Positions 9,777 to 33,345 of a stretch of DNA of 42,254 bases are shown here, piece after piece. The position numbers and the translations under genes are program-made. The stretch covers positions 1-42,254 of the forward strand of contig DASSUD010000322.1 of NCBI GenBank assembly GCA_035707385.1. The letters are read 5' to 3'. The notes beneath the pieces were generated by a model. That model was not told the origin of the DNA. It searched no databases and was given only the letters and a program-made list of their open reading frames with translations. Within the stretch, counting starts at the first letter, position 1, and every line of letters begins with the position of its first letter. The DNA comes from Acidimicrobiales bacterium (GTDB lineage: Bacteria; Actinomycetota; Acidimicrobiia; Acidimicrobiales; VFJN01).

Positions 9777-10541
9777 ATGGGACGACAGACCGACACCGGC
9801 CCCGGCAGCCGCCGCCCCGACGAGCCGCTCGCGCTCGTCGTCGGCGCCTCCGGTGCCCTCGGGCGGGAGATCGCCCTCGAGCTCGACCGCCTCGGCTGTG
9901 CGCTCGCCCTCCACTACAACGCCGGGCCCGAGGCGGTGAAGGAGCTCGACGGCGTGCTGCGGCGGCCACCGCTCCTGGTCCAGGCCGACATCTGCTCGTG
10001 GGACGAGGTGCGGGACATGCACGCCACGGTGGTGGCCGAGCGCGGCCACCCCGCGGTTCTCGTCAACTGCTCGGGCATCCGCCGCGACACGCTGATGGCG
10101 GTGCAGGCGCCCGACCAGTGGCGCCGGGTCATCGACGTCAACCTGATCGGCACCTTCCACACCTGCAAGGCCGTGCTGCCGCGCATGCTGAAGGAGCGGT
10201 GGGGCCGCATCGTCAACGTCGTCTCGCCCTCGGGGCTCATCGCCAGCCCCGGCCAGACCGCGTACTCCGCCTCCAAGGCGGGGGTGATCGGGCTGACCCG
10301 CTCGCTGGCGGCCGAGTGCGGCCGCCGGGGCGTCACGGTCAACGCCCTGTCGCCCGGGTTCATGGAGACCGCCATGACGGCGGACGTCCCCGAGGGGGTC
10401 AAGGACATGATGAGGCAGCGGCTGCCGATCCCGAGGTTCGGGTCGCCCGCCGAGGTCGCCGCCGGCATGCGGCTGTTCCTCGACGGCGACTACATGACCG
10501 GCCAGGTCGTCAGCATCGACGGGGGGATCTCGATCACATGA
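9777..10541 (+). CDS. fabG: 3-oxoacyl-ACP reductase (FabG-type SDR)
   Basis: C-terminal part of the chimeric track ORF 7056..10541. ATG 9777 lies 2 nt after the fabH stop. Motifs: VVGASGALGREIA (Rossmann), YSASKAG (Y-x3-K), PGFMETAM. Confidence 0.9.
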   Translation: MGRQTDTGPGSRRPDEPLALVVGASGALGREIALELDRLGCALALHYNAGPEAVKELDGVLRRPPLLVQADICSWDEVRDMHATVVAERGHPAVLVNCSGIRRDTLMAVQAPDQWRRVIDVNLIGTFHTCKAVLPRMLKERWGRIVNVVSPSGLIASPGQTAYSASKAGVIGLTRSLAAECGRRGVTVNALSPGFMETAMTADVPEGVKDMMRQRLPIPRFGSPAEVAAGMRLFLDGDYMTGQVVSIDGGISIT

Positions 10542-17290: not shown

Positions 17291-19098
17291 GTCGCCGCGC
17301 CGCCCAGCACGCCCCGGACGGACGGCCGGTCGAAGAGGTCCTCGAGGGCCAGCTCCATCCCCAGGTCGGACTCGGCCCGCGCCACCAGCTCGACCGCCAG
17401 CAGCGAGTCGCCGCCGAGGTCGAAGAAGTCGTCGAGGACGCCGACCGCATCGAGCTCGAGCACCTCGGCCCACAGCCCCGCCAGGGCCGCCTCCCGGGGC
17501 TGGGCCGGTGGCTCGTAGGCGACGGACAGCACGGGCCGCTCCCGGCTCGCGGGGGGCAGCACCCGCCGGTCGACCTTGCCGTTGCGGGTGAGCGGCAGCT
17601 CGGGGAGGTGCACGACCTGGGACGGGACCATGTGCTCGGGGAGCCGGGCCGCCACGTGCCGCCGCAGCTCCTCCACCGCCGGCGGCGTGCTGCCGTCGCC
17701 CACCACGAAGGCGACGATGTGGTTGTCACCGCGGCGGCGCGTGCGCACGGCCGCCGCCGCCGCCCGCACGCCGGCGTGGGCAGCCAGCGCGGCCTCGACC
17801 TCGCCCAGCTCGACACGGTGGCCCCGCACCTTGACCTGGGTGTCCTGCCGGCCCAGGTAGACGAGGTCGCCGCCGTCGCCGACCCGGGCCAGGTCGCCGG
17901 TGCGGTACGTGCGCTCGCCGCACCCCGTCTCGCCGAAGCCACCACCGCCGGGTGGCTTCGCGCCGACGTAGCCGCGGGCCACGCACGTGCCCGCGATGTG
18001 GATCTCGCCCACGTCGCCGGCCGGCACCGGGCGCCCCGAGTCGTCCAGGAGGACCAGGCGCGTCCCCGGGATCGGGCGGCCGATCGGCACGGGCCCGTCG
18101 GGGACGGCGGCGCCGGCGGGGATGTCGTAGACACAGCAGCCGACCGTGGCTTCGGTCGGTCCATACTCGTTGGCGAAGGTGGTGGCGGGGTCGGCCGCCC
18201 GCCAGGCCCGCAGGTGCGCGCCGTGCAGTGCCTCGCCGCCGACCACCACGGTCCGGGCCAGGCCCCGCAGCGCCTCCGGCGGCAGCCCCGCGCCCAGCAG
18301 CTCCAGGTGCGACGGCGTGAGCTTGAGGACGCCGTAGCGGGGCCGCCGGCCGAGCCTCGCCAGCAGGGCGGCGGGACCGTCGGCGGCGAGCAGCTCGACG
18401 CAGCCGCCGCTGACGAGCGGGGCCAGCAGGCAGGTCAGCGTGAAGTCGAAGGTCACGGGGCTGTGCACCAGCGCCCGCTCGCCGGGCGCGAACCCGTAGT
18501 GGGCCACGGCCCAGTCGACGTAGGCCGCCAGGTTGCCGTGGGTCACCATCACCCCCTTGGGGGTGCCGGTCGAGCCCGACGTGTACAGGACGTAGGCGAC
18601 GTCGTCGGGGCCCACGGGAGCCGGCCGCGGCGGCAACGGGCCGTACCCGCCGGAGCGGGCCACGATCCCGACCCGGTGGCGTGTCCAGGGCCCCACCGGG
18701 AACCGGTCGCCCCCGTCCCCGCTCGTGTCGAGGACCAGGCGGACCCCGGCCCGGGCCGCCATGTCGGCCAGGCGGGACGGAGGCTCGTCCGGGTCGAGGG
18801 GAACGTAGGCGGCCCCGGCCCGCATCACGCCCAGCACCGCGGCCACCATCTCCGGGGTCCGCCGGGCCGACACCCCCACCGCGCCGCCGGGGCCGGCTCC
18901 GGCCCGCTCGAGGGCGGTGGCCACGTCGGCCGCGCAGCGGTCGAGCTGCGCGTAGGTCCAGGCCGTGCCCGCGTCGGGCGCGACGGCCTGCGCCTCCGGG
19001 TGCGCCGCGACCCGGTGCTCGAACCCGGCCAGGACGGAGCGCCAGGGGACGGCGGCCGCTCCGCGGCCCGCGGGGGCGTCAGCGGTCATCGATTCCAT
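17287..19098 (-). CDS. NRPS A-T didomain protein (adenylation plus thiolation)
   Basis: C-terminal 603 aa of track ORF 17287..20052, from ATG 19098 (MESMTADAP). An alternative ATG at 19089 overlaps the dioxygenase stop (ATGA). Motifs: YTSGSTGTPKG, VTFDFTLTC, NEYGPTEAT, YRTGDL, TRNGKVDRR, FFDLGGDSLL. Hand-read code D-F-T-K-V-V-E-V-G-K matches the Asn code DATKVGEVGK at 8 of 10 positions. Confidence 0.9.
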   Translation of the reverse strand: MESMTADAPAGRGAAAVPWRSVLAGFEHRVAAHPEAQAVAPDAGTAWTYAQLDRCAADVATALERAGAGPGGAVGVSARRTPEMVAAVLGVMRAGAAYVPLDPDEPPSRLADMAARAGVRLVLDTSGDGGDRFPVGPWTRHRVGIVARSGGYGPLPPRPAPVGPDDVAYVLYTSGSTGTPKGVMVTHGNLAAYVDWAVAHYGFAPGERALVHSPVTFDFTLTCLLAPLVSGGCVELLAADGPAALLARLGRRPRYGVLKLTPSHLELLGAGLPPEALRGLARTVVVGGEALHGAHLRAWRAADPATTFANEYGPTEATVGCCVYDIPAGAAVPDGPVPIGRPIPGTRLVLLDDSGRPVPAGDVGEIHIAGTCVARGYVGAKPPGGGGFGETGCGERTYRTGDLARVGDGGDLVYLGRQDTQVKVRGHRVELGEVEAALAAHAGVRAAAAAVRTRRRGDNHIVAFVVGDGSTPPAVEELRRHVAARLPEHMVPSQVVHLPELPLTRNGKVDRRVLPPASRERPVLSVAYEPPAQPREAALAGLWAEVLELDAVGVLDDFFDLGGDSLLAVELVARAESDLGMELALEDLFDRPSVRGVLGGAAT

Positions 19099-20054
19099 CC
19101 GGGCTCCTCCGGGACCTCGCGACCGCGCCCGTCGGCGCGGTGCCACTCGTCGACCATCGCCACCACCACCTCGCGCGGCCCGGCGTAGGGGGCCCGGGCG
19201 TGCGCGCATAGCATGTTGTCCACCACCAGCACGTCCCCGGCCCGCCAGGCGCCGGCCACCGTCTCGGCGGCGTAGGCGTCCCGCACCTCGTCGAGGTGGC
19301 CGGCCGGGATGTCGTCCCCGTCGCCGAAGTACGAGTTGGAGGCCCGGGCGCCGGGCGGCACCCGCTCCATCGACCGCCGCAGCCAGTCCGGTTCGAGGCC
19401 CCGCACGTGGAACAGCAGGGCGTGGTTGAACCACACCTCCTGGCCCGACACCGGGTGGGTCTCGACCGCGGGCGCCGCCTGCCGGGTCGAGAGCTCGTCG
19501 CCGCGCCAGCGCCACGCCATCCCCCGCGACCGGCAGTGGGCCTCGACGGCGCCGGGATCGCCGGTGCCGAACGCGTCCTGCCAACCGACGCCGGAACGGC
19601 CCGAGTAGTTGCGCTCGTAGAGGAGTCCACGGGCGGTGAACTCCGCCCGCGTGGCCGGGCTCAGCCGGGCCAGCACGGCCCCCGAGTCGGCCAGCAGGGT
19701 CTCGCCGCCCTCGCCGGGCGGCCGCAGGCAGGCGAACAGCACCAGCCGCGGCCAGCAGGCCGCGTAGGAGAACTCGTTGTGGAACTGGATCGGGAAGCGG
19801 GCGGGGTAGTCGGTCGAGGTCCACACCCCGTCGTCCAGGCGGGTCCGGGGCGACGACTCCTCGGGCAGGGCGGGCACCACGCGGCCGAGCGCGGACGCGG
19901 CCCGCCGCAGGTCGGCGGCGGACGCCACGCCGGTGCCCCGCACCCGGACGGCGCCGTGGCGGGCCACCAGGTCCGCCAGGTGGCCCACCACACCGGTGTC
20001 CGGCACCGCGTCGCGCCCGCCGAAGCCACCCAGCTCCGAGGCGGGGAGGCACAT
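19086..20054 (-). CDS. Fe(II)/2-oxoglutarate-dependent dioxygenase, TauD/TfdA (SyrP/AsnO-like) family
   Basis: C-terminal 322 aa of track ORF 19086..21125, from ATG 20054 (alternative ATG at 20126). FPIQFHNEFSY provides an H-x-E facial-triad motif; also GGETLLAD and VVDNMLCAHARAPY (distal His/Arg). It is immediately upstream of, and overlaps, the A-T gene. Confidence 0.8.
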   Translation of the reverse strand: MCLPASELGGFGGRDAVPDTGVVGHLADLVARHGAVRVRGTGVASAADLRRAASALGRVVPALPEESSPRTRLDDGVWTSTDYPARFPIQFHNEFSYAACWPRLVLFACLRPPGEGGETLLADSGAVLARLSPATRAEFTARGLLYERNYSGRSGVGWQDAFGTGDPGAVEAHCRSRGMAWRWRGDELSTRQAAPAVETHPVSGQEVWFNHALLFHVRGLEPDWLRRSMERVPPGARASNSYFGDGDDIPAGHLDEVRDAYAAETVAGAWRAGDVLVVDNMLCAHARAPYAGPREVVVAMVDEWHRADGRGREVPEEPGWNR

Positions 20055-20144
20055 GAGGTCCCTGGGCTCTGCTCGCACGTGCCTGACCGGTGCCTCTCGT
20101 GTCGGGGCCTTACCGGGGTCGAGCATGGTGGTCACACTGCGGGC
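20055..20144. promoter_or_regulatory. Divergent promoter region between the dioxygenase-NRPS operon (-) and the sbnB-like gene (+)
   Basis: A 90-bp gap if the 20054 start is used. It contains the hexamer GTGCCT twice with 11-bp spacing (20079-20084 and 20090-20095). Confidence 0.4.
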
Positions 20145-21200
20145 ATGGGATCCCCCTCCGGTCGAGCGCCCGCCGACGATCACGTTCTCTACCTGGACAA
20201 CGAGGCGGTGCTGGCGCACCTGGCCGGCGTCGACGTCGTGGAGGTCGTGGCCGCCGTGCTCGCGGCCCACCGTGACGGCCGGACCGTGCTGCCCGAGGAG
20301 GCCGCGCTGTACTGGCCGACGCCGGCCGGGGCGACGGCGCGGAGCCTGGCGCTGCCCGCGCTCGTCGAGGGACCGGGTGGCCCGGTCGCCGGCCTCAAGG
20401 TCATCAACGCCAACCCCGCCAACGTGGCCCGCGGTCTGCCGCGGGCGAGCGGGATCCTGGTCCTGTTCGACCCGGAGACCGCCCGGGTCACCGCCGTCCT
20501 CCAGGCCGAGCACATCTCGAGCCGGCGCACCGCCGCGGTCACGGCGGTGGCGGTGCGCCACCTCGCTCCCGGGGCCCGTTCGCTCGCCCTCATCGGCTGC
20601 GGCGCCCTCGCCCGCGCCCACCTCGACGTGTGCCCGGCCGAGCTGGCGGACCTCACCACCCTGACGCTGTTCGACCTCGACCGGGGTCGGGCCGAGGCCC
20701 TGGCCGCCGAGGCCCGCCGCCGGCCGGAGCTGGCCAGGGTCGAGGTCGCCGTCGCGCCCGGCGCCCGAGCCGCTGTCGAGGGCAGCGAGGTGGTGGTCCC
20801 GGTCACGACCGTGACCGAGCCCTACATCACCGCCGACTGGCTCGCCGGCACCCGCATGGTGGTGAACGTGTCGCTCGACGACTGCGCCCGGGACGTCTTC
20901 CAGGACTGCGACGTGCTGGTCGTCGACGACTGGGATCTGGTGGCGGCGGACACGCGCCGCCTGCTCGGCGTCCTGGCGGCCGAGGGCGCCGTCACCCCGC
21001 CCGGGAGCCCGGCGGGCGGGGGCGGGCGCCCCGTCGACGCGACCCTCGGCGACGTGATGGCGTCGGGCCCGGGCCGGTCGAACGGTGAGCTGGTGGTCGT
21101 CAACCCCTTCGGCATGGGCGTCCACGACGTCGCCCTGGGCGGCGAGGTCCTCGCCCGGGCCACCCGCGGCGGCCGGGGCGGCCTACGCCTGTCCCGCTGA
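20145..21200 (+). CDS. sbnB: Ornithine cyclodeaminase/mu-crystallin family dehydrogenase, SbnB/VioK-like
   Basis: In frame within track ORF 19296..21200, from ATG 20145 (MGSPSGRAPADDHVLYLDNEAV). OCD-family features: GLKVINANP, SSRRTAAVTAVAVRHLA, LALIGCGALARAHL (Rossmann), VVNPFGMGVHDVAL. A SbnA-like partner lies at 24948. Confidence 0.8.
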   Translation: MGSPSGRAPADDHVLYLDNEAVLAHLAGVDVVEVVAAVLAAHRDGRTVLPEEAALYWPTPAGATARSLALPALVEGPGGPVAGLKVINANPANVARGLPRASGILVLFDPETARVTAVLQAEHISSRRTAAVTAVAVRHLAPGARSLALIGCGALARAHLDVCPAELADLTTLTLFDLDRGRAEALAAEARRRPELARVEVAVAPGARAAVEGSEVVVPVTTVTEPYITADWLAGTRMVVNVSLDDCARDVFQDCDVLVVDDWDLVAADTRRLLGVLAAEGAVTPPGSPAGGGGRPVDATLGDVMASGPGRSNGELVVVNPFGMGVHDVALGGEVLARATRGGRGGLRLSR

Positions 21201-23111
21201 GCCGCCGGGCCCGGCGTCGATCTCCACCGCCCGCTCCAGCGTGGGGCCGAGGGCCGCCCACGCCGCGGCGACGGCCTCCGGCCCGTGCTCGGACACCACC
21301 ACCAGGTAGGGCGGTAGCTCGTAGCGGCGGGCCCGCTCCCCGAGCGCCGGCACGTCGTAGAGCACCGACGGCATCCATCGCCCACCGAAGCGCGTCTCGG
21401 CGGCGCCCGGGAAGACGAGGCCGGCCGTCAGGTCACCGGCCGTGAACGCGGTCCACGGTGCCGGGCCGGGCGGGATCGGCGAGCGGAGGAACTCGAAGTT
21501 GGGGGACCCGTAGGGGAGCGGGCCGGCGGGGGCCGGGCCGCCGCCCGGTGCCGGAAGGGACAGCGCGGGCGCCCGGAGGCACACCCGCGGCCAGGTCCGC
21601 AGCCACCGGGCGCCCCCGGAGGACGCACCCTCCAGCTCGACCGTGGTCTCCACCCGCAGCACGCCGTCCGCCACGACCGCGAAGGACCGTCGCACCAGCA
21701 GGCGGCGCAGGCCGCGCTCGTCGGCCCGCTCGGCCAGGCTCTCGTGCAACTCGATCCACCGGTTGGCGGAGCTCCGCAGCTCCAGCCCGCCGACCGCCGG
21801 CCGGGTCACGTCCTCGATCCGGCGGGCCACCGGCGCCTTGTGGCCGCCGGGGAACGGGGGACCGACGTCGGGCCACAGCTCGCGGACGGCGACCTCGCCG
21901 CCCACGGTCGCCCCCAGCTCACCCGTGGTGCCGTCGAGCCGGAACGTCACCGGCCCGCTCGCCGCCTCCCAACCGCCGGGCCGGGGCACGAAGGCGGGCG
22001 CTGCCGGGCCGCCGGCGGCCCGCACGTCGAACCACGTGGACGTCCGCCAGGTCCGGGACCGCCCCGGGGCCTCCGGCTCGTCGATCTCGACCGCCAGGTG
22101 GACCTCCCGGCGCCCTGGCCCCGGGGCCGGCACCGTGAGCCGGCACCGCAGCTCCTCCCGCGACGCCAGGGTGCCGGCGAACAGGGTTCGGTGCCCGACG
22201 TCGTCGCGCACCACGGCCCGCGCCGGCGCGTCGGCCCGGTTGACCACGCGGAAGTGGACCGTCACGTCCTGGCCGGCCGGCATCGACCGGCCGCCCTCGG
22301 GCCAGCAGGCCACCTCCTGGCTGCGGCCGCCGACGGCGGCCACGCGGTCGGTCTCCCGGTCGACGAGCAGCACCACGTGTTCGTCGCCGGGCAGGCGCAG
22401 CTCGTAGGCGAGCACCTCGACGCCGTGCCAGTCGAGGACGTCGACACCGGACCGCCGGGCCCGCCGCGGGAACAGCTTGACGATGTCGCGGCGGCCGGCC
22501 AGCCAGCTCGCCGGCACGGTGCTGGACGCCCGCAGGGCGGTGACCAGGTAGCGCACGATCATCGGCATGTGCGTCTCGAACAGCACGCACCCGTCCTCGC
22601 ACGGCTCGCCCGTGATCTGCTGGAAGCCCATGCGGCGGTACAGGCGCTGGGGCCGGTCGTTGCCCACTTCGACGTGGCCGTCGACCCGGTCGTAGCCGCG
22701 GCTGACGGCGTCGACGGCGACGGTCATCATCAGGTGGGCGGCCAGGCCGGTCGACACGTAGGCGGGGTGGACCACGACGTGCTCGCCGAAGACGCTGTTG
22801 GCGCGGCTGCCCCGCTGCACCGACGTGGGTGTGACCGCGATGCAGCCGACCACGCCGCGCTCGGCCACCGCCACCATCACCTCGACGGCGCCCCACTCGT
22901 CGAGCCCGCGGCGCAGGTCATCGGGGGTGAAGGAGTGGCCGTCGCGGAACGGCCCCCAGCCCCGCAGCTCGAACAGCGCGCACAGCGACTCGATGTCCCC
23001 CGGCTCCAGGGCCCGGATCGTGTAGCCGCCGCGCGCGCCCGGCCGGACGTCACGCGTGTCCTCGATCACGTCGCCGACCATCCCCCCCGGCTCCGTCACG
23101 TCGCCGACCAT
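21183..23111 (-). CDS. GNAT N-acetyltransferase fused to a ~450-aa uncharacterised C-terminal domain
   Basis: ORF 21183..23111, 642 aa (alternative start ATG 23081). The N-terminal ~170 aa are GNAT-like (YTIRALEPGDIESL..., VVGCIAV..., RLYRRMGFQ). I cannot assign the remaining beta-rich sequence to any family by eye. Confidence 0.75.
   Translation of the reverse strand: MVGDVTEPGGMVGDVIEDTRDVRPGARGGYTIRALEPGDIESLCALFELRGWGPFRDGHSFTPDDLRRGLDEWGAVEVMVAVAERGVVGCIAVTPTSVQRGSRANSVFGEHVVVHPAYVSTGLAAHLMMTVAVDAVSRGYDRVDGHVEVGNDRPQRLYRRMGFQQITGEPCEDGCVLFETHMPMIVRYLVTALRASSTVPASWLAGRRDIVKLFPRRARRSGVDVLDWHGVEVLAYELRLPGDEHVVLLVDRETDRVAAVGGRSQEVACWPEGGRSMPAGQDVTVHFRVVNRADAPARAVVRDDVGHRTLFAGTLASREELRCRLTVPAPGPGRREVHLAVEIDEPEAPGRSRTWRTSTWFDVRAAGGPAAPAFVPRPGGWEAASGPVTFRLDGTTGELGATVGGEVAVRELWPDVGPPFPGGHKAPVARRIEDVTRPAVGGLELRSSANRWIELHESLAERADERGLRRLLVRRSFAVVADGVLRVETTVELEGASSGGARWLRTWPRVCLRAPALSLPAPGGGPAPAGPLPYGSPNFEFLRSPIPPGPAPWTAFTAGDLTAGLVFPGAAETRFGGRWMPSVLYDVPALGERARRYELPPYLVVVSEHGPEAVAAAWAALGPTLERAVEIDAGPGGSAGQA
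23066..23111. repeat. Perfect 16-nt direct repeat TCACGTCGCCGACCAT, two copies 30 nt apart
   Basis: Copies at 23066-23081 and 23096-23111. Each contains a reverse-strand ATG and a reverse-strand TGA. This encodes the duplicated MVGDV at the N-terminus of the GNAT ORF; the upstream copy carries the StrR-like stop codon. Confidence 0.9.
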
Positions 23112-24043
23112 GCCCCGGTGCCGCTACGCCGCTCGAGCTCCGCGGCCAGCCGGGCCCACAGCTTCGACTGGCGGTTGGCCTCGTCGGCCACGGCGTAGAT
23201 CCGGCCCCGCGGCACCAGCGCGGCCCTGTCCAGCGCGTCCTCGCCGATGCGGTGGCGCTCGAACCAGTCGAGGAACGAGCGCCCGTCGTCGCTGCCGGTC
23301 AGGGCCGCGTCGGACGCCAGGTCGTCGCAGGCGGGGGGCGCCGGTGCCGTGCGCCCGACCTGCAGGCGGGGCGGCAGGGGGCCCGCGCCGCTCGCGACCC
23401 GCCGCCGCACGTCGAGAGCGGTCGCCTGGGACGTCCCCGCCTCGGCCGCCAGCCGCCGCAGGGACAGGTCCGGCCGGCCGGCGAGGAGCTCGGCCACCCG
23501 TAGACGCCCCGCGGCCGGGTCGACCGGGCGGGCCCGGCCGTCGGCGCCCACGCGCACACCCGCGACGGGGGACCGGGACCGCTGCCGCTCCTCGGCGACG
23601 GTGTGGCCGGCCAGCCCGCACACCCGGGCGACCCGCCGGTCGGACCAGTCGGGATGGGTGCCGAGGATGCGCCGCACGGCCGCCCGCCGCTCCTCCAGGG
23701 TCAGGGCCTTGCCGTGGGTGACGTTGGCCCGCACGGCCTCTACGTACGCGTCCTCGGCCGTCCCGGTGAACGCGACGCCGTCGATCGTCTCCCGCCCGAG
23801 CTGGCGGGCCGCCATGACCCGGTGCAGGCCGTCGACCACGACCCGGCCGGGCTCCAGCACCACGATGGGGGGCAGGTCGTCGAAGCAGGCGGCCAGCGCG
23901 GCGATGTGGTCGCGGTCGCGGGGTGTCAGGCGGGCCGACAGCGTGAGGCGCAGCCGGGCCACCGCGTAGGCCCGTCGCCGCCCGATCCGGGGGGCGGCGA
24001 CGCGGTCGCGGCCGCCCGAGGTCGCCGGATGGGCGGCGCTCAC
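23096..24043 (-). CDS. StrR-family pathway-specific regulator (ParB-like nuclease domain plus HTH)
   Basis: C-terminal 315 aa of track ORF 23096..25234, from GTG 24043 (GTGA overlap with the upstream ORF stop). LPPIVVLEPGRVVVDGLHRVMAARQLGRETIDGVAFTGTAEDAYVEAVRANVTHGKALTLEERRAAVRRILGTHPDWSDRRVARVCGLAGHTVAEER is colinear with the StrR/Bbr-type ParB-like core. Confidence 0.8.
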   Translation of the reverse strand: MSAAHPATSGGRDRVAAPRIGRRRAYAVARLRLTLSARLTPRDRDHIAALAACFDDLPPIVVLEPGRVVVDGLHRVMAARQLGRETIDGVAFTGTAEDAYVEAVRANVTHGKALTLEERRAAVRRILGTHPDWSDRRVARVCGLAGHTVAEERQRSRSPVAGVRVGADGRARPVDPAAGRLRVAELLAGRPDLSLRRLAAEAGTSQATALDVRRRVASGAGPLPPRLQVGRTAPAPPACDDLASDAALTGSDDGRSFLDWFERHRIGEDALDRAALVPRGRIYAVADEANRQSKLWARLAAELERRSGTGAWSAT

Positions 24044-24801
24044 CGGCCGGCCCCGGACGCGGACGCCGCCGGCAGTCCGCCCGCCCGCAGCAGTGCGCGA
24101 ACCAGCTCGATCCAGAGCCCGGGGTCGGGCACGACGGATGTCTCGAAGCGCCGGCGGCGCGGGTTGCCCAGCCACCGGTCGACGGCGAAGTGGGCGACCT
24201 GGGGCGAGATCCGGTCCAGGACGAGGTGGATGCGCTCGGTCCCGGGGACATGCCAGTCGAGCCGGCGGAGGAAGGCGAGGTAGTCGTTGTGGGTGCGGCA
24301 CAGCGGAGCGTGGATCGGTTGCTCGCGGGGCCCGTCGCGCAGCGCGACCGCGCGCTGCGCCGCACCCAGGTAGAGGCCGGCCATCCCCAGCGGCCGGCCG
24401 GCCTCCCGCCCGAGGGTGCGGGCGAGGGAGCGGAGCAGCGCGGTACCGGGCGCGGTCCCCGGGGACGGCGCGGCCGCGGACGGCACCAGCAGGGCGCGCA
24501 CCGCGGCCGGGGACAGGACCGTGGGCGGGCCCAGTCCCCGGCCGGCCTGGTGCACGGTGCTGGTGCCCTCCTCCACGAAGCGGGCCCGCCACGCGGCCAC
24601 CGTGCGCGGGGTGACGCCGCAGCGCTGCGCGATCTCGGTGTTGCTCGCGCCCTGGGCCGCCATCAGCAGCGCCCGGGCCCTGCGCACGGCCTGGGTGGGG
24701 GAGTGGGGCGAGCGTGCCAGCGCCTCGAGCTCGCGCATCTGGCCGGGCGACGCCTTCAGGGGTGGAGCGGTCACGGGCATTGCCAGCGCCTCCGCGTGCA
24801 T
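24040..24801 (-). mobile_element. Decayed IS630-family transposase-derived ORF (probable relic or pseudogene)
   Basis: Track ORF 24040..24966; plausible starts are ATG 24801 or 24780. The N-terminus resembles the IS630 HTH (MRELEALARSPHSPTQAVRRARALLMAAQGASNTEIAQRCGVTPRTVAAWRARFVEEG). The C-terminus keeps recognisable but degraded equivalents of the DDE_3 region (IHLVLDRISPQVAHFAVDRWLGNPRRRRFETSVVPDPGLWIELV). The central catalytic part is much shorter than in intact elements. No terminal inverted repeats were identified. Confidence 0.55.
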
Positions 24802-24865
24802 GGCGACTGCAGGACGGGGCGATCGTGGGCGCGCGGGCGCAACGGTCGCGCAACAGGCCGGCGGG

Positions 24866-24898
24866 GCGCTCGACCGAGCATCCCGCGCGGTCGAGCGC
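24866..24898. promoter_or_regulatory. Perfect palindrome GCGCTCGACCG-N11-CGGTCGAGCGC (StrR-operator-like)
   Basis: Read directly: arms at 24866-24876 and 24888-24898, with an 11-nt spacer. It lies in the divergent gap between the IS630-like/strR-like operon and the sbnA-like gene, about 50 nt upstream of the sbnA-like start. A further CGGTCGACG half-site is at 24911-24919. Confidence 0.55.
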
Positions 24899-24947
24899 GC
24901 ACGGGCGGGGCGGTCGACGGCGGCGGGACCTGTGCAGATGATCACGG

Positions 24948-26018
24948 GTGATGCCCACCGCGCCACCCGCCACCGACAATCCCACCGCCACCGCCGGGGA
25001 CTGGGCGCTCGCCTCCCGGTCGCCGCTGACGCTGCGGACCCTGGTCGAGACGCTGGGGGCCACCCCGCTGGAGCCGATCACGATCCTGGCGGGGGGCCGC
25101 CACCACCGCGTGCACCTCAAGCTGGAGGCCCACAACCCTGCGGGCTCGATCAAGGACCGCACCGCGCTGGCACTGGTCCAGGACCTCGAGCGGCGGGGGG
25201 CGCTGCGCCCCGCGGGCCACCTGATCGAGTCCACCTCCGGGAACCTGGGGGTGGCGCTGGCCCTGGTGTGCCGGGCGTACGGCTACCGGTTCACCGCGGT
25301 GGTGGACGGCAGGGCCACCGCGGAGAACGTGAGCCGCATGGCCGCGTTGGGCGCCATCATCGAGGTGGTGGACGACACGGGGCCGGGCCAGAACCACCTG
25401 GCGGCCCGCCTGGACCGGGTGGCCGCGCTGTGCCGGGCCGACCCCGACCTGGTGTGGGTCAACCAGTACGGCAACCCGGCGAACCCGGAGGTCCACGAGC
25501 GCACGACGGCGCCGGAGATCCTGCGGCAGGCGGGCGGTCGCCTGGACGCGGTGTTCGTGGCCGTGTCGACCTGCGGGACGCTGGCCGGCCTCGGCCGGCA
25601 CCTGCGCCGGGCCAGCCCGTCGACCCGCATCGTGGCCGTCGACGCCGCGGGCTCCGAGATCTTCGGTGGGCCGCCGGGCCCGCGGCGCCTGGTCGGCATC
25701 GGCGCGGGCCGCCGGCCCGACTTCGCCATCGACGGGCTCTACGACGAGGTTGTGACCGTCGACGACGAGACGGCCCTCGCCGTGTGCCGGGACCTCGAGG
25801 CGGGCTGCGGGCTGCGGGTCGGCGGGTCGAGCGGCGCCGCGGTGGCCGCCTGCGCCCGCCACGTGGCCGCCGTCCCGGACGCCGGCCGGGTGGTGTGCGT
25901 CTGCCCGGACGGCGGGGACAACTACGCGTCGACGATCGGCTGCGACGACTGGATCCACGCCCAGGGCCTGGACCTCGACCGGGCGCGGGCCCGGCTCGGC
26001 GCCGTGTTCGCCCCCTGA
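24948..26018 (+). CDS. sbnA: PLP-dependent cysteine-synthase-fold enzyme, SbnA/VioB-like (2,3-diaminopropionate pathway)
   Basis: ORF 24948..26018, 356 aa (GTG 24948 or ATG 24951). Motifs: KLEAHNPAGSIKDRTA (PLP Lys), ESTSGNLGVALA, AVSTCGTLAG, GGSSGAAV. Confidence 0.8.
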   Translation: MMPTAPPATDNPTATAGDWALASRSPLTLRTLVETLGATPLEPITILAGGRHHRVHLKLEAHNPAGSIKDRTALALVQDLERRGALRPAGHLIESTSGNLGVALALVCRAYGYRFTAVVDGRATAENVSRMAALGAIIEVVDDTGPGQNHLAARLDRVAALCRADPDLVWVNQYGNPANPEVHERTTAPEILRQAGGRLDAVFVAVSTCGTLAGLGRHLRRASPSTRIVAVDAAGSEIFGGPPGPRRLVGIGAGRRPDFAIDGLYDEVVTVDDETALAVCRDLEAGCGLRVGGSSGAAVAACARHVAAVPDAGRVVCVCPDGGDNYASTIGCDDWIHAQGLDLDRARARLGAVFAP

Positions 26019-26026
26019 TCGGGCGA

Positions 26027-26048
26027 GGGAGCTAGCCGCGCAGCTCCC
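26027..26048. terminator. 7-bp perfect stem hairpin between convergent genes
   Basis: GGGAGCT-agccgcgc-AGCTCCC. It starts 9 nt after the sbnA-like stop and spans the stop codon of the minus-strand membrane-protein gene. There is no U-tract. Confidence 0.3.
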
Positions 26049-26709
26049 GCAGGACCTTCGACCAGTCACCGGAGCGGGTCGAGAACGCCAGGTCCACCGC
26101 CAGCTGCCCGATGCCGACGACCAGCAGCACGGTGCGGACCGCCGGGGCCGCGTCGACGGCGACCGCCACGCCCAGCACGGCGAAGGGGACGACCTTGCTG
26201 ACCACCGGCGCCGCCGCGTGCATGAGGGCGCGGGCCCGGGGGCTGGCCCGCAGGTAGGTGGCGTAGTCGATCTTGACCCCGGGGAAGGGGTCGTGGAGCG
26301 AGGCCACGAAGTAGCCGGTGAACGCGATGCCGACCAGCCGGCCGGCGATCCAGTGGGCGGGCGCGTGGGTCGACAGCAACAGCAGCAGGCCCCCGCCGAG
26401 GAGGGCGGCCGCCTGGCCCGAGCCGTCGAGGCCGCCGGCGGCCGCCAGGGCCGCCGCCCCGAGCACCAGGCCGGCGGCCACGAGGGCGTGGCCCGTGAGT
26501 GGGGGGACGCGCACGAGCGCCCAGGTGCTCGCCGCCCGCCGGTCGACGGCGGCGATGCGGTCGGCGTGGGGTCCGGCCACCGCCGGGTCGCGCCGGGCGG
26601 CCGCCACCGCCGGCCAGAACCCGGTGCCGGCGAGACCCTCGCCGCGGGCGACGGCCTCCTCGGCCCGCTGCAGGGCGGCGTCGATCGCCGCCTGGCTGAG
26701 CTCGGTCAT
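26032..26709 (-). CDS. Integral membrane protein of unknown function
   Basis: Track ORF 26032..26799; likely start is ATG 26709 (MTELSQAAIDAAL). A soluble N-terminal ~60 aa is followed by several hydrophobic segments (LVAAGLVLGAAALAAAGG, AALLGGGLLLLLSTHA, VVPFAVLGVAVAV, VLLVVGIGQLAV). Confidence 0.65.
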   Translation of the reverse strand: MTELSQAAIDAALQRAEEAVARGEGLAGTGFWPAVAAARRDPAVAGPHADRIAAVDRRAASTWALVRVPPLTGHALVAAGLVLGAAALAAAGGLDGSGQAAALLGGGLLLLLSTHAPAHWIAGRLVGIAFTGYFVASLHDPFPGVKIDYATYLRASPRARALMHAAAPVVSKVVPFAVLGVAVAVDAAPAVRTVLLVVGIGQLAVDLAFSTRSGDWSKVLRELRG

Positions 26710-26891
26710 GCGGTCCCCTTCGCGTCCGTGTCTCCGGAGGGCACCGTAACGGCGCCCCGGTCGAGCGGTCACCGGGCCGCCGGCGGTTTCGCCTGCCACC
26801 CGGGGATGAGGGCACCTTCGTCCGGGGGAGGGCCCGGGACGCGACCGGCGACCGATATACAGGGCTGACGAGTCCGGGGTTCAATCGCCTC

Positions 26892-28836: not shown

Positions 28837-29978
28837 GGCAGGTGCTGGGGATGATGTGGGTCGATCGCCGCCTCCTGCGGCGCGACCACGTCGGGCTGTT
28901 CTTCACCTTCCTCCTGCCACTCGCCGTCGCCGCCGTGCTGGCCCCGATCTACATCGCCGAGGGAGGGACCCGGGCATCGGTGGCGCTCGTCGCCGAGGGT
29001 CCGGGCCCGGTGACCGAGCTGTTCTCCGACCGGCTGGGCCGCAGCCCGGGCCTGGAGCTCCGGCGCTACGCCGATCGGGAGGCCGCCGAGCTCGCGGTCC
29101 GGCGGCGTGACGTCAGCGCAGCGGTCGTCCTGCCGGCCGGGCTCGGCGAAGGGGGCACCGCGCCGGACCGCGTGGAGCTGGTCGGTCCACCCGAGGTCGC
29201 GGCGCCGGACGGCGTGCGCGCCGCGGTGGAGTCCGCGGCGGCGGAGACGGCGGCCCTGGTGGTGGCCGCCCGGGCGCTGGAGCCCGGCGCCGCGCTGGAG
29301 GACGGGCTCGAGGTCGCGGCCGGCCGGGCCGGCGGGGCGCTCGACGGGGCCGCCGCCGCGGCGCAGCCGGCGGAGCGGCGCAACGCCAACGCGGCCAGCG
29401 CCGTGATCGGCGTGGTGGTGCTGTTCGCCTTCGTGAACACGATGGCCAAGTCGTCGCAGCTCGCCTCGTACCGGGAGCTCGGGGTGCTCGGCCGGTTGCG
29501 GGCCATGCCGGTGACGTCGACCCAGGTGGCCCTCGGGTTCGCGCTGGGGCTCGCCGGCTACGCCGCGGCGCAGGGCCTGCTGGTGGTGGCCGGTGCCACG
29601 CTGTTCCTCGGCGTGTCGTGGCCCCAGCCGCTCCTCGTCGTCGCCTTCGTCCTCGTCGTCGGGCTGGTGGCGGGGGGGCTGAGCGCGCTGGTCGGCTGTG
29701 TGCTGCCGTCCTCGTCGGCCGGTGTGACGATCGCGGGCCCGGTGGGCTTCGTGCTCGCCATGCTGGGCGGTTGCCTGTGGCCGCTCGGGCTGGTCGGCCC
29801 GGCGATGCGGGCCGTCGGGCACCTGACGCCCCACGCCTGGGCGGTGGACGGGCTCAACGCCGTCGTGTTCGGCTGGCCCACCGGCGACTGGGTGGTGCCG
29901 CTCCTGGTGCTGGCGGGCTTCGCCGTGGCCCTCGCCGCGCTGGCCGGTCGCGCCCTGCGGCTGGCCGTGACGGCCTGA
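28833..29978 (+). CDS. Second ABC-2 type transporter permease
   Basis: In frame within track ORF 28488..29978; ATG 28833 overlaps the preceding stop (ATGA). MRQVLGMMWVDRRLLRRDHVGLFFTFLLPLAVAAVL..., with the same architecture as the preceding permease. Confidence 0.8.
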   Translation: MRQVLGMMWVDRRLLRRDHVGLFFTFLLPLAVAAVLAPIYIAEGGTRASVALVAEGPGPVTELFSDRLGRSPGLELRRYADREAAELAVRRRDVSAAVVLPAGLGEGGTAPDRVELVGPPEVAAPDGVRAAVESAAAETAALVVAARALEPGAALEDGLEVAAGRAGGALDGAAAAAQPAERRNANAASAVIGVVVLFAFVNTMAKSSQLASYRELGVLGRLRAMPVTSTQVALGFALGLAGYAAAQGLLVVAGATLFLGVSWPQPLLVVAFVLVVGLVAGGLSALVGCVLPSSSAGVTIAGPVGFVLAMLGGCLWPLGLVGPAMRAVGHLTPHAWAVDGLNAVVFGWPTGDWVVPLLVLAGFAVALAALAGRALRLAVTA

Positions 29979-30018
29979 CGATGCGCCCGCCCCTGCGGCG
30001 CCGCGCGCGGGCTCCGGC

Positions 30019-33000
30019 GTGACGGTGGAGATCCGCCTCCTCGGGCAGGTCGCCATGTGCCGGGACGGCCGGGAGGTGGTGGTCACCAGTCCGCAGGCCC
30101 AGGTGGCGCTGGCCCGCCTGACCATCGAGCGGGGCAGTGGCACGACCCGCTACTCGCTGGCGGACACCCTGTGGCCCGGCGGTGTGCCGGCCACCTGGAC
30201 CTCGGCGCTGCGAGGTGTGGTCAGCCGCGTGCGGGCGGCGCTGGCCGCTGTCGTGCCGGACGGCCCCGGCTCCCTCCTGTCCGTGGGCGGGACCTACCGG
30301 CTGCGGCTCCCGGCCGACGTCGAGGTCGACGTCGAGCGGGCCGAGGGCGCGCTGGCGGCGGCGCAGCGGCTGCTGGCGGACGGCGAGCCGGGCCCCGCGG
30401 CCCGCCGGGCCAGGGACGCCGCCGCGCTGCTGGCCCTGCCGTTCCTGCCCCACCACGACAGCGACTGGGCACGGGAGGTTCGTGACCGCCTGGCCGAGGG
30501 GACGGTCACGGCCTATGAGACGGCCAGCCGGGCGGCGCTGGGCTCGGATCCCGCGGAGGCCCTGGTGTTCGCCAACCAGGCCGTCGCGGCGGCGCCGCTG
30601 CGGGAGAGCGCGCACCGGTGTCGCATCGCGGCCCACGCCGCGGCGGGCAACCGGGCCGACGCGCTGCGTGCCTACCAGGACCTGCGACGGGTGCTCGCCG
30701 AGGAGCTGGGCGTCGACCCGTCGGAGGAGTCCGAGGCCGCGTACCTCGGCCTCCTGGTCACCGCCCGCGGTGACCCCGCGGGGGCCGGACCGCTGCGGGG
30801 CGGGCGGCCGCTGCCGTTCGTCGGCCGGCGCGCCGAGCTGGCGACGATCAGCGGCCGGTGGGCGGCCGCCGGGGGAGCGCGCGGTGCGTCCCACATGGTC
30901 GTCGTGACCGGCGGGCCGGGTGCGGGCAAGACCCGGCTGGCGGCAGAGGCGGGCGCGCTCATCGCCGCCGGCGGCGGCATGGTCCTACAGGGCCGGGCAC
31001 AACCCGCGCCGGGCGATCCGTGCGGCGTGCTGGTCGAGGCGTTCGACGGCTATCTCGGGTCGACGCCCGCCGACGAGCGCCCGGTGCTCAGTGCCGCCGC
31101 CCGCGGCGAGCTGGCGGCGGTCATGCCGTCCCTGCGCACGCCATCGAGCCCCCGCCGGCGGCCGACGTCCGGGGCGGCCGTCTCCGGCGCGCTCACCGAG
31201 CTGGCACAGGCGGCGGGGCGCGACCGGCCGCTGTGCCTGGTGCTGGACGACCTCGCCGGGGCCGACCGGCACACGTTCCGGTGCCTGTGGCGGCTACTCA
31301 CGGGAGGCGGCACCCGCCTGCTCGTCGTCGCCACCGCCCGCGGGGCCAGCGGGCGGCCGAACGCCTACGCCGCCCTCGTCGACGGCCTGGTCGCGGACTC
31401 CCGCCTGACCGAGGTCGGCCTGGCCGGCCTGGCCGCGGCCGAGGTCCAGGAGCTGGTCGACGCCGTTCTCGACGAGCCCCGGGCCGCCCGCCGGGCGGTG
31501 GCGCGCACGCTGGTCGACGACACGGCGGGCAACCCGTACCTGCTGACCGCTCTGCTCGAGGCCCGGTCGGGGCCGGCAGCCCCGTCGCCGGTCACCGGTC
31601 CCGTGCCGCCCAGGGTGGCCTCGTGGGTGGAGGCCCGGCTGGCCGGACTGGACGAGCCGGCGTGGGCGCTGGCCCGATCGGCCGCGGTGGCCGGCCAGGG
31701 GTGCGAGGTCGACCTGGTGGTGCGGGCGTCGGGCCTCGGCCCGGCGGCGGCGCTGCGCGGCCTGGAGCAGCTGATCGACGCCGGCCTGGCCGCCGAGGTC
31801 GCTCCCGATGCGGAGTTCCCGACCCGGCTGCGCTTCGTGCACGACGTCACCCGCCGGGTCGTCCTCGACGGGCTGTCCGGGATACGGCGCCACCGGCTCC
31901 ACCTGGCTCTGGCCGACGCCATCGAGCAGCTCCCGCCTGGCGCCGCGGACCGCTTCGTGGCGCGGCTGGCGTACCACCGGGCCGCCGGGTCCGATCCTCC
32001 CGACGACCGGGTGTCCGCCTCCCTCCGCGACGCCGGCCGGGCGTTCGGAGGCCGGTCGGCCCACCAGGCCGTCCGGCTGCTCCGCCAGGCGTACGAGTAC
32101 GCGCCCCCCTCGGACCAGCCGCTCCGCGCCGGCACCCTCGCCGACCTCGGGCTCGCCCTCGTCGCCGTCGACCCCCGCGACGCGGCCCAGACCTTGATGC
32201 AGGCGGCCATCGAGGCCCGGGGTTGCCGGCGGGGCGACATCGCGGCCCGGGCTCTCGTCGGGCTGATCGACGCGGCCCGGCGCAGCGGGACGCTGGGCGG
32301 CGAGGCCGGCGCCCTGATCGACGGCCTGCTGCGCTGGTCAGGGGAGTCGGCGGTGGCGATGGACCCGCTGGACAGGGCGCGCCTGGTCGCCGCGCACGTC
32401 GCCCGCGGCGGCCGCGTGCCGGGAGACGCCCCTGCACTGCTGGCGCAGGCGGCGCGTGACCTGGCGGTGGAGCTGGAGCGGTCCGGGGGCTTCGAGCGCC
32501 TCGACGAGCGCCGCCTGCTGGCCGCCGACCTGGCGGCCGTGGCCGCGGCGGCGGGCGACACCCGCGCCCTGGTCGACGCCGCGCACCACCAGGCGACGGC
32601 GGCCGGCCTGGCGGGCGACCGCGCCGCGGTGCGGCAGGTGCTCGCCGGGCTGGGCACGGGACCCGCGGGCGACGAACCGGCCACGACCCGGATGCTGGTC
32701 GGCTACCACCTGGCCGTGGCGGTCACGGAGGGGCGCGTGACCGACGCCTACGCGCTGGCGCCGCTCGCCGGGCGGGAGGCCGGAGCCGAGCTGGCGGTGG
32801 CGCGCTGGTTGGAGGAGGGGCGCCTGCAGCCCGCCGGCGCCGACCCCGAGGCCAAGGCGGCCCCGCTGTGGCGGGCGGTGGCCGCGCTGGCCGCCGGCGA
32901 CCGGGGCGAGGCGCACGTGGTGGCGCGGGCTCTCGCCACCGGGATCGAACCGCTGGCCCCCGGCGACGCCTGGCCACACGCGGTGGGTCTGCTGGCGGTG

Positions 33001-33345
33001 CTCGCGGTCGAGCTGGGCGACGCCACGACGGCCGCCGCGGTCCGGTCGCTCCTCGCCCCGTTCGCCGGCCTCGACTGCTCGCTGGGCTACACCGGCCACG
33101 TCGGTCCCGTCGAGCTGCACCTGGCGCGGCTCGCCCTGGTGACCGGGGAGTGGTCCGAGGCCGAGCGGCAGAGCACCGCGGCCCTCCACCGCCTGACCGG
33201 GCTGCGGGCCCTGCCGTGGATGGGCCTCGCCCGCACCGCCCTCGCCGACGCGCTGGAGGGACGCGGCCGCCTGCACGACCGCGACTGGATCGACGAGCTC
33301 CGGGCGGAGGCCCTCCGATCGGCGCCTCGCAGGTCCCCCGTGTAG
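30019..33345 (+). CDS. Large SARP/AfsR-type regulator (OmpR-like DNA-binding plus BTAD, P-loop NTPase, TPR-like C-terminus)
   Basis: ORF 30019..33345, 1108 aa, GTG start. The N-terminus VEIRLLGQVAMCRDGREVVV... and LRAYQDLRRVLAEELGVDPSEESEAAYLGLL are typical BTAD. Walker A: VVTGGPGAGKTRLA. Walker B-like: LCLVLDDL. The C-terminus is long and Ala/Leu-rich helical. Confidence 0.85.
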   Translation: MTVEIRLLGQVAMCRDGREVVVTSPQAQVALARLTIERGSGTTRYSLADTLWPGGVPATWTSALRGVVSRVRAALAAVVPDGPGSLLSVGGTYRLRLPADVEVDVERAEGALAAAQRLLADGEPGPAARRARDAAALLALPFLPHHDSDWAREVRDRLAEGTVTAYETASRAALGSDPAEALVFANQAVAAAPLRESAHRCRIAAHAAAGNRADALRAYQDLRRVLAEELGVDPSEESEAAYLGLLVTARGDPAGAGPLRGGRPLPFVGRRAELATISGRWAAAGGARGASHMVVVTGGPGAGKTRLAAEAGALIAAGGGMVLQGRAQPAPGDPCGVLVEAFDGYLGSTPADERPVLSAAARGELAAVMPSLRTPSSPRRRPTSGAAVSGALTELAQAAGRDRPLCLVLDDLAGADRHTFRCLWRLLTGGGTRLLVVATARGASGRPNAYAALVDGLVADSRLTEVGLAGLAAAEVQELVDAVLDEPRAARRAVARTLVDDTAGNPYLLTALLEARSGPAAPSPVTGPVPPRVASWVEARLAGLDEPAWALARSAAVAGQGCEVDLVVRASGLGPAAALRGLEQLIDAGLAAEVAPDAEFPTRLRFVHDVTRRVVLDGLSGIRRHRLHLALADAIEQLPPGAADRFVARLAYHRAAGSDPPDDRVSASLRDAGRAFGGRSAHQAVRLLRQAYEYAPPSDQPLRAGTLADLGLALVAVDPRDAAQTLMQAAIEARGCRRGDIAARALVGLIDAARRSGTLGGEAGALIDGLLRWSGESAVAMDPLDRARLVAAHVARGGRVPGDAPALLAQAARDLAVELERSGGFERLDERRLLAADLAAVAAAAGDTRALVDAAHHQATAAGLAGDRAAVRQVLAGLGTGPAGDEPATTRMLVGYHLAVAVTEGRVTDAYALAPLAGREAGAELAVARWLEEGRLQPAGADPEAKAAPLWRAVAALAAGDRGEAHVVARALATGIEPLAPGDAWPHAVGLLAVLAVELGDATTAAAVRSLLAPFAGLDCSLGYTGHVGPVELHLARLALVTGEWSEAERQSTAALHRLTGLRALPWMGLARTALADALEGRGRLHDRDWIDELRAEALRSAPRRSPV

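Follow-up and report, generated by a model that had tools for sequence, protein, structure and literature searches.

In the stretch of 42,254 nt of Acidimicrobiales DNA analysed here (the window), a perfect palindrome lies between two divergently oriented transcription units, one of which encodes a StrR-like regulator. This arrangement raises the question of whether the palindrome is an operator and, if so, which protein binds it and what it controls. We examined it in the draft genome that contains the window, an uncultured soil Acidimicrobiales MAG (4.42 Mb in 521 contigs, 74% complete), and in assemblies of relatives that are likewise labelled uncultured Acidimicrobiales MAGs. The analysis indicates that the palindrome is probably the operator of the StrR-family regulator encoded within the same cluster (23096-24043, minus strand), which is predicted to bind it.

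A palindrome in the divergent gap of a biosynthetic gene cluster

Re-reading of the sequence recovered the arms, spacer and coordinates of the palindrome as they were given in the initial annotation.

24866..24898, no strand: palindrome GCGCTCGACCG-N11-CGGTCGAGCGC, read from the sequence

The left arm GCGCTCGACCG (24866-24876) and the right arm CGGTCGAGCGC (24888-24898) enclose the spacer agcatcccgcg (24877-24887); within them, a 29-bp core of the StrR type, GCTCGACCG-N11-CGGTCGAGC, spans 24868-24896, and the centre of the palindrome is at 24882. In a repeat search the arms could be extended to 14 nt with one mismatch, leaving a 5-nt loop. Position 24877 is A in the window and C in all four soil-metagenome strains examined, and with C the palindrome becomes a perfect 14-N5-14 repeat; the A may be a strain variant or an error of the MAG consensus. 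Another variant among the soil-metagenome strains, T to C at 24870, alters one arm position.

The palindrome sits in a 167-bp gap (24781-24947) that separates an SbnA-like PLP enzyme gene on the plus strand from an HTH_23/StrR-like/GNAT operon on the minus strand. Genes were mapped by GC3 frame analysis together with Pfam and NCBIfam searches:

24040..24780, minus: HTH_23 protein, 246 aa; IS630-transposase-like at the N-terminus, decayed in the core; opens the leftward operon (domain matches)
23096..24043, minus: StrR-family regulator, 315 aa, with a ParB-like N-domain, an HTH and a helical C-terminal domain; the proposed binder (homology and fold)
21183..23111, minus: 642-aa protein, GNAT domain at the N-terminus; closes the leftward operon (domain match)
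24948..26018, plus: SbnA-family PLP enzyme gene; the proposed rightward target (PF00291, 2e-66; TIGR03945, 330 bits against a cut-off of 350)
about 20145-21200, plus: SbnB-like OCD/mu-crystallin gene (gene map)
about 19086-20050, minus: TauD dioxygenase gene (gene map)

The HTH_23 and StrR-like genes overlap by GTGA, the GTG start of the latter overlapping the preceding TGA, and the GNAT gene also follows the StrR-like gene in the orthologous locus L001. In the list of open reading frames two genes overlap at 19086-21200, where a 679-aa minus-strand frame is an over-extension. A 255-aa open reading frame with coding-type GC3 (26032-26799, minus strand) lies between the SbnA-like gene and the ABC operon and has no Pfam or NCBIfam match. 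It is absent from loci L037 and L001, in which the PLP gene is directly followed by the ABC exporter genes as one operon, and judging from this comparison of sequences it is a lineage-specific insertion. The contiguity of the PLP and ABC genes in L037 and L001 suggests that the rightward promoter there would drive precursor supply and export together.

The StrR-like gene forms part of a biosynthetic gene cluster: among the genes of the window are those for NRPS C-A-T modules, a stand-alone A-T didomain, KS, KAS III, ACP and reductases, along with the TauD, SbnA-like and SbnB-like genes and ABC exporters that include an ABC-2 exporter. With an SbnB-like OCD gene (at about 20145-21200) as partner of the SbnA-like gene, diaminopropionate synthesis is plausible, and so is the earlier suggestion that the palindrome governs Dap supply.

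By itself the inverted repeat is not significant, since shuffled sequence yields comparable perfect 11-nt repeats: the window, at 77% GC, has five perfect inverted repeats whose 11-nt arms stand 0-20 nt apart, and dinucleotide shuffles have 3.2. When the spacer is fixed at 11 nt, the shuffles give 0.165 per window, which corresponds to ~6.5e-4 expected per 167-bp gap. The case for the palindrome is carried by its position, its uniqueness, its match to StrR operators and its conservation rather than by the repeat. The 29-bp site (18 specified bases) has one exact occurrence in the 4.42-Mb draft genome, and among the 30 genome sites with two or fewer mismatches the palindrome alone is non-coding by a GC3 frame test and inspection. 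These counts answer the concern, raised when the palindrome was first described, that it might be common throughout the genome, and they rule out a dispersed repeat.

Resemblance to StrR-family operators

For the streptomycin clusters, in Streptomyces griseus and S. glaucescens, PMC8306873 gives the StrR operator as GTTCGActG(N)11CagTcGAAc, citing Retzlaff & Distler 1995, and the consensus stated in the initial annotation was correct. Set against this consensus, the palindrome core GCTCGACCG(N)11CGGTCGAGC matches at 7/9 positions in one half-site and 7/9 in the other, the TCGAC core included, and has the identical 11-nt spacer, so that the degree of match claimed earlier holds against the published form; 5/6 positions of the outer hexamer GTTCGA are matched. 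Both sites are 29-bp inverted repeats with 9-nt half-sites 11 nt apart, and both occur in a promoter region within a biosynthetic cluster whose genes include one for a ParB-like/HTH protein of the StrR family. The half-site here, GCTCGACCG, differs from the published one by C for T at positions 2 and 8, and its arms reach 11-14 nt. There are also differences of setting. We find just one convincing site in the cluster, against multiple sites for StrR, and it stands immediately in front of the operon that contains the regulator gene. The bacterium is an uncultured member of the Acidimicrobiales rather than a streptomycete, and the cluster is of the NRPS/fatty-acyl type, not an aminoglycoside cluster.

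The sites of Bbr, Dbv4 and Tei15* in glycopeptide clusters follow the pattern GTCCAR(N)17TTGGAC, and Bbr and Dbv4 bind upstream of bbr itself (PMC6022936). They share with the palindrome the regulator family, the 29-bp span and outer hexamers 17 bp apart, but their hexamer is GTCCAR and the one here is GCTCGA.

GC-rich palindromes of the TCGAC type form easily in the DNA of the window, and the likeness to a StrR operator could be a coincidence, the palindrome then being the operator of some other regulator, of the cluster or global. Candidates are encoded in the window itself, namely a 1124-aa SARP/BTAD-AAA protein (29971-33345), an AAA_16 protein and a WYL/HTH_11 protein. We consider this explanation unlikely. 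Sequences within four mismatches of the StrR consensus occur at only 33 positions in the 4.4-Mb draft genome, which puts the number of matches of such quality expected in the 167-bp gap at 0.00125. The site also travels with the StrR-like gene across loci, as described below. SARPs, for their part, bind direct repeats, not palindromes, and a separate direct repeat is present in the gap for such a protein.

The neighbouring regulator belongs to the StrR family by homology and predicted fold

Pfam and NCBIfam models gave no direct match to the 315-aa protein, PF02195 being recorded for several of its homologues only. Full-length homologues (35-45% identity, E 1e-37 to 1e-48) are present in Streptomyces, Amycolatopsis, Actinomadura and others, where they are named streptomycin biosynthesis regulator or protein, transcriptional regulator, or ParB N-terminal domain-containing protein. 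Their alignment contains an invariant DGxHR motif and two HTH regions.

The AlphaFold2 model (pLDDT 80) predicts a ParB-like N-domain, two strands (residues 163-165 and 171-173), a tri-helical HTH at 176-218 (helices 176-189, 195-202 and 206-218) and a helical C-terminal domain from 246 to 308. The modelled HTH, strands and helical C-terminus correspond to the architecture described for StrR, whose ParB-like N-domain leads into a pair of short antiparallel beta-strands, followed by a tri-helical HTH and then a helical C-terminal domain (PMC10886168). When the model was compared with the PDB using Foldseek, the top matches were the pNOB8 ParB-N domain, KorB, Noc and ParB (E 1e-5 to 1e-3, probability 1.0), consistent with an N-terminal domain of the ParB/Srx fold, and a weak AsnC-type HTH match covers residues 186-210. 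Full-length homology to actinomycete proteins that carry the name of a streptomycin biosynthesis regulator, together with the predicted fold, supports the earlier assignment, and on this basis we accept the protein as a StrR-family member.

The proposed binder shares its N-domain fold and adjoining HTH with the proteins of the ParB-parS, Noc-NBS and KorB-OB systems, which also recognize palindromic sites as dimers. Their sites are 16-bp palindromes, contiguous over 13-16 bp, whereas the half-sites here are 11 bp apart. ParB, Noc and KorB are in addition CTP-dependent clamps, and their GERR CTP-binding box is replaced in the StrR-like protein by DGLHR, within residues 69-78, where the invariant DGxHR resembles sulfiredoxin and the ParB-like nucleases. 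We know of no nucleotide switch in the StrR family. All orthologues with the same half-site have the same putative recognition helix, TSQATALDV(R/K)RR, from which other StrR-like proteins depart.

Arms and spacer length are conserved in orthologous loci

The divergent gap was recovered from five other assemblies (L041, L040, L037, L001/L013 and L012). In the orientation of the lines below, the window spacer reads cgcgggatgct.

L041: HTH_23 protein 97% identical to that of the window; GCGCTCGACCG cgcgggacacg CGGTCGAGCGC
L040: HTH_23 protein 69% identical to that of the window; GCGCTCGACCG cgcaggacacg CGGTCGAGCGC
L037: HTH_23 protein 57% and regulator 67% identical to those of the window; GCGCTCGACCG cgccccgcacg CGGTCGAGCGC
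L001/L013 and L012: regulator 59% identical, no HTH_23 gene in the locus; GCTCGACCG-N11-CRGTTGAGT

Both arms are invariant (22/22 positions) in the window, L041, L040 and L037, down to a regulator identity of 67%; these loci represent few lineages, L041 and L040 being close relatives. Alignment and direct reading of the same four loci show that the spacer varies at 7 of its 11 positions and the intergenic region at 66 of 167, and the spacer is 11 nt long in all six loci. L001 and L012 keep the left half-site intact, 6-7 of the 9 positions of the right half-site and the 11-nt spacer in the same divergent gap. A scan of metagenome contigs added one short contig only. Invariant arms around a free spacer of fixed length are the signature of a dimeric DNA-binding protein, and on this comparative evidence the palindrome is a conserved cis element. 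Taken with the operator match and the protein family, the conservation supports the core of the initial annotation, a StrR-type operator beside its regulator; the two accessory half-sites that it added, at 24911 and 26758, were not supported as operator sites, as detailed in the following sections.

L001 and L012, both of which have no HTH_23 gene in the locus, carry a second 9-N11-9 inverted repeat, GGTCGACGC-N11-GCGTCGGCR (L001 9856-9884, L012 3817-3845). At a distance of 51-58 bp from the main site, this repeat overlaps the PLP promoter's -35-like element.

The same loci bear on which of the two co-transcribed HTH proteins is the binder. The HTH_23 protein (24040-24780) has a strong HTH (HTH_23 match, 2e-13) as well as GerE-like and sigma-70 region-4-like matches. 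It retains a remnant of the IS630 DDE C-terminal region in a frame that has been kept open, and its orthologues (P0123-P0125, 57-97% identity) occur in at least four other assemblies and are absent from the otherwise orthologous L001 and L012. Its open frame, its conservation and, in at least four loci, its translational coupling to the regulator make the gene look domesticated rather than fossil. It is conceivable that this IS630-derived protein binds the palindrome, alone or jointly with the StrR-like regulator, as might a domesticated transposase able to recognize a relic of its inverted repeat; perfect arms of 11-14 nt occur only in loci with the gene, and the right half-site falls to 6-7/9 in those without it. 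We nevertheless judge such binding improbable. L001 and L012 keep the core of the site and its 11-nt spacing with no HTH_23 gene in the locus, the StrR-like gene there being directly divergent from the PLP gene; genome G005 has no homologue and genome G007 has a weak HTH match on another contig, in genomes that are 63-67% complete. The sequence, moreover, resembles a StrR-family operator, not a transposon end, and its uniqueness in the genome leaves the would-be terminal repeat without a further copy. The persistence of the site in L001 and L012, together with the shared recognition helix, favours the StrR-like protein as the binder. We give a similarly low probability to a two-protein unit, in which a domesticated HTH_23 co-regulator would contact the extended arms (GCGC...GCGC, 13-14 nt) or the adjacent direct repeats; such a unit would account for the restriction of the perfect palindrome to loci with the HTH_23 gene.

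The conservation pattern also speaks to whether the palindrome acts as a nucleic acid structure, a 5'-UTR stem-loop, a stabiliser or a cruciform, instead of a protein site. The hairpin predicted for the window and for L037 is very stable (-36 kcal/mol, z about -3.3 to -3.6). On one strand, G-U pairs could still form despite the C-to-T substitutions in L012's right arm, and Logan contigs frequently break at the palindrome. In L001, however, the fold is no better than shuffled (z = -0.2) although the half-site sequence is kept, and there are no compensatory changes across loci, the arms being conserved as sequence. The palindrome also lies upstream of both predicted promoters and is probably not transcribed. 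A hairpin function is accordingly the least probable of the explanations considered here, and we regard it as very unlikely. A terminator or known RNA at the palindrome was rejected, as there is no T-tract and no Rfam family scores above noise.

Putative promoters on both sides of the palindrome

We infer two divergent promoters within the gap from the following elements.

24911..24919, plus: CGGTCGACG, the third half-site of the initial annotation; contains a -35-like TCGACG at 24914-24919 and is invariant in the window, L041, L040 and L037
24937..24942, plus: -10-like GATGAT of the SbnA-like gene promoter; conserved in six loci, promoter role predicted
24837..24854, minus: direct repeat GTTGCGC-N4-GTTGCGC with an 11-nt period, SARP-box-like; conserved, SARP assignment putative
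24822-24827, minus: putative -10-like CACGAT of the regulator operon

On the strand of the PLP gene, the arrangement TCGAC(G/C)-N17/18-GATGAT is found in 6/6 loci, and the third half-site is therefore most simply explained as part of the PLP promoter: its presence at 24911-24919 and its conservation are confirmed, but the role of an operator half-site is not, since it coincides with the -35-like TCGACG. A distance of 5 nt separates the end of GATGAT from the GTG at 24948, and this suggests that the SbnA-like mRNA is leaderless. The edge of the palindrome is 15 bp from the -35 element and its centre ~66 bp upstream of the predicted SbnA-like start, a spacing that would be an activator-type position if the predicted starts are right; the centre is ~67 bp upstream of the predicted leftward start, near 24815.

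On the leftward side, a GGAGG ribosome-binding site precedes the ATG at 24780, and the direct repeat at 24837-24854 lies 9 nt upstream of CACGAT, before the regulator operon. The repeat is conserved in the window, L041, L037, L001 and L012, and in L040 a 1-nt insertion places the copies 12 nt apart. SARP sites typically consist of heptamer repeats of 11-bp period that lie ~8 bp from the -10 element. This geometry, together with the SARP encoded in the cluster (29971-33345), suggests a cascade from the SARP to the StrR-like regulator. Across loci the conserved repeat reads GTTGCGy-N4-rTTGCGC; in L037 it lies at 5925-5946 and in L001 at 9961-9980.

Measured from the palindrome centre, the PLP-side -10 is 59-61 nt away in four loci and 88-95 nt away in L001 and L012; the regulator-side -10 lies 49-61 nt from the palindrome across loci. 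As these distances are not constant, we hold the geometric argument loosely. No RNA run contained the locus.

Other sites in the cluster and in other StrR-like loci

The initial annotation also pointed to an exact CGGTCGAGC half-site at 26758-26766, upstream of the ABC operon. The copy is there, but this 9-mer has 17 exact copies in the window, mostly coding, which reflects the favoured codon pairs CTC-GAC and GTC-GAG, so that a single copy carries no weight by itself; the adjacent gene (26032-26799) is moreover absent from the orthologous loci. A second operator at 26758 is unsupported, the best full-site match there having four mismatches. Another exact CGGTCGAGC, at 20159-20167 near the SbnB-like start, belongs to the same 9-mer and is too common to interpret.

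Searches with up to two mismatches found no site besides the palindrome in the window, and likewise one site in the 21-kb locus L001; every other match in the window and L001 departs from the degenerate pattern by 3-4 mismatches and falls outside the promoter gaps. The several promoter sites across the cluster that characterize StrR and Bbr were thus not found.

Twenty-five other StrR-like loci were surveyed with a generalised StrR pattern. Most had no upstream palindrome; besides the orthologous L012 and L013, only L024 and L028 did, the former with GTTCAGGTG-N11-CAGTTGAAC and the latter with GTCCAACTG-N11-CAGTTGGAC, each upstream of its StrR-like gene. Both of these unrelated StrR-like genes have a palindrome of the family-type 9-N11-9 form, and the small number of loci with such a palindrome indicates that autoregulatory sites are not universal in the StrR family. 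L007, which has a 46% identical StrR-like gene with GCTCGACCC-N11-CGGTCGTTC at its 5' end, was set aside: the locus is non-syntenic, its neighbour is a sigma factor, and the motif lies inside a probable reading frame.

A model for the operator and its significance

We propose that a dimer of the ParB-like/HTH StrR-family protein would bind the two GCTCGACCG half-sites, 11 bp apart, of an operator centred ~66-67 bp upstream of two predicted divergent transcription starts. The rightward output, through TCGACG, GATGAT and the leaderless GTG at 24948, would be the SbnA-like gene, which in relatives heads one operon with the ABC exporter genes. The leftward output would be the HTH_23/StrR-like/GNAT operon, through CACGAT preceded by the SARP-box-like repeat. 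The upstream position of the site and the precedent of StrR, NovG, Bbr and Dbv4 make activation the most likely effect of the regulator, which would in this way switch on the supply of diaminopropionate precursor and export and reinforce its own expression.

If this model is correct, the palindrome is an ordinary, well-supported example of a known regulatory design, of modest conceptual novelty and involving no new kind of mechanism. Its interest lies in carrying the 9-N11-9, 29-bp architecture of StrR operators outside the streptomycetes and the remaining cultured Actinomycetes, and in providing a candidate control point for a silent NRPS/lipopeptide-like cluster, widespread in soil metagenomes, from uncultured Acidimicrobiales. 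The regulator gene, the 33-bp operator and the two compact promoters could be used to switch on the refactored cluster in a surrogate host, and the pairing of the half-site GCTCGACCG with the recognition helix TSQATALDVRRR could help to decode how the StrR family reads DNA. Should the two-protein unit prove true, it would represent the domestication of a transposase into antibiotic-cluster regulation in an uncultured actinobacterial class.
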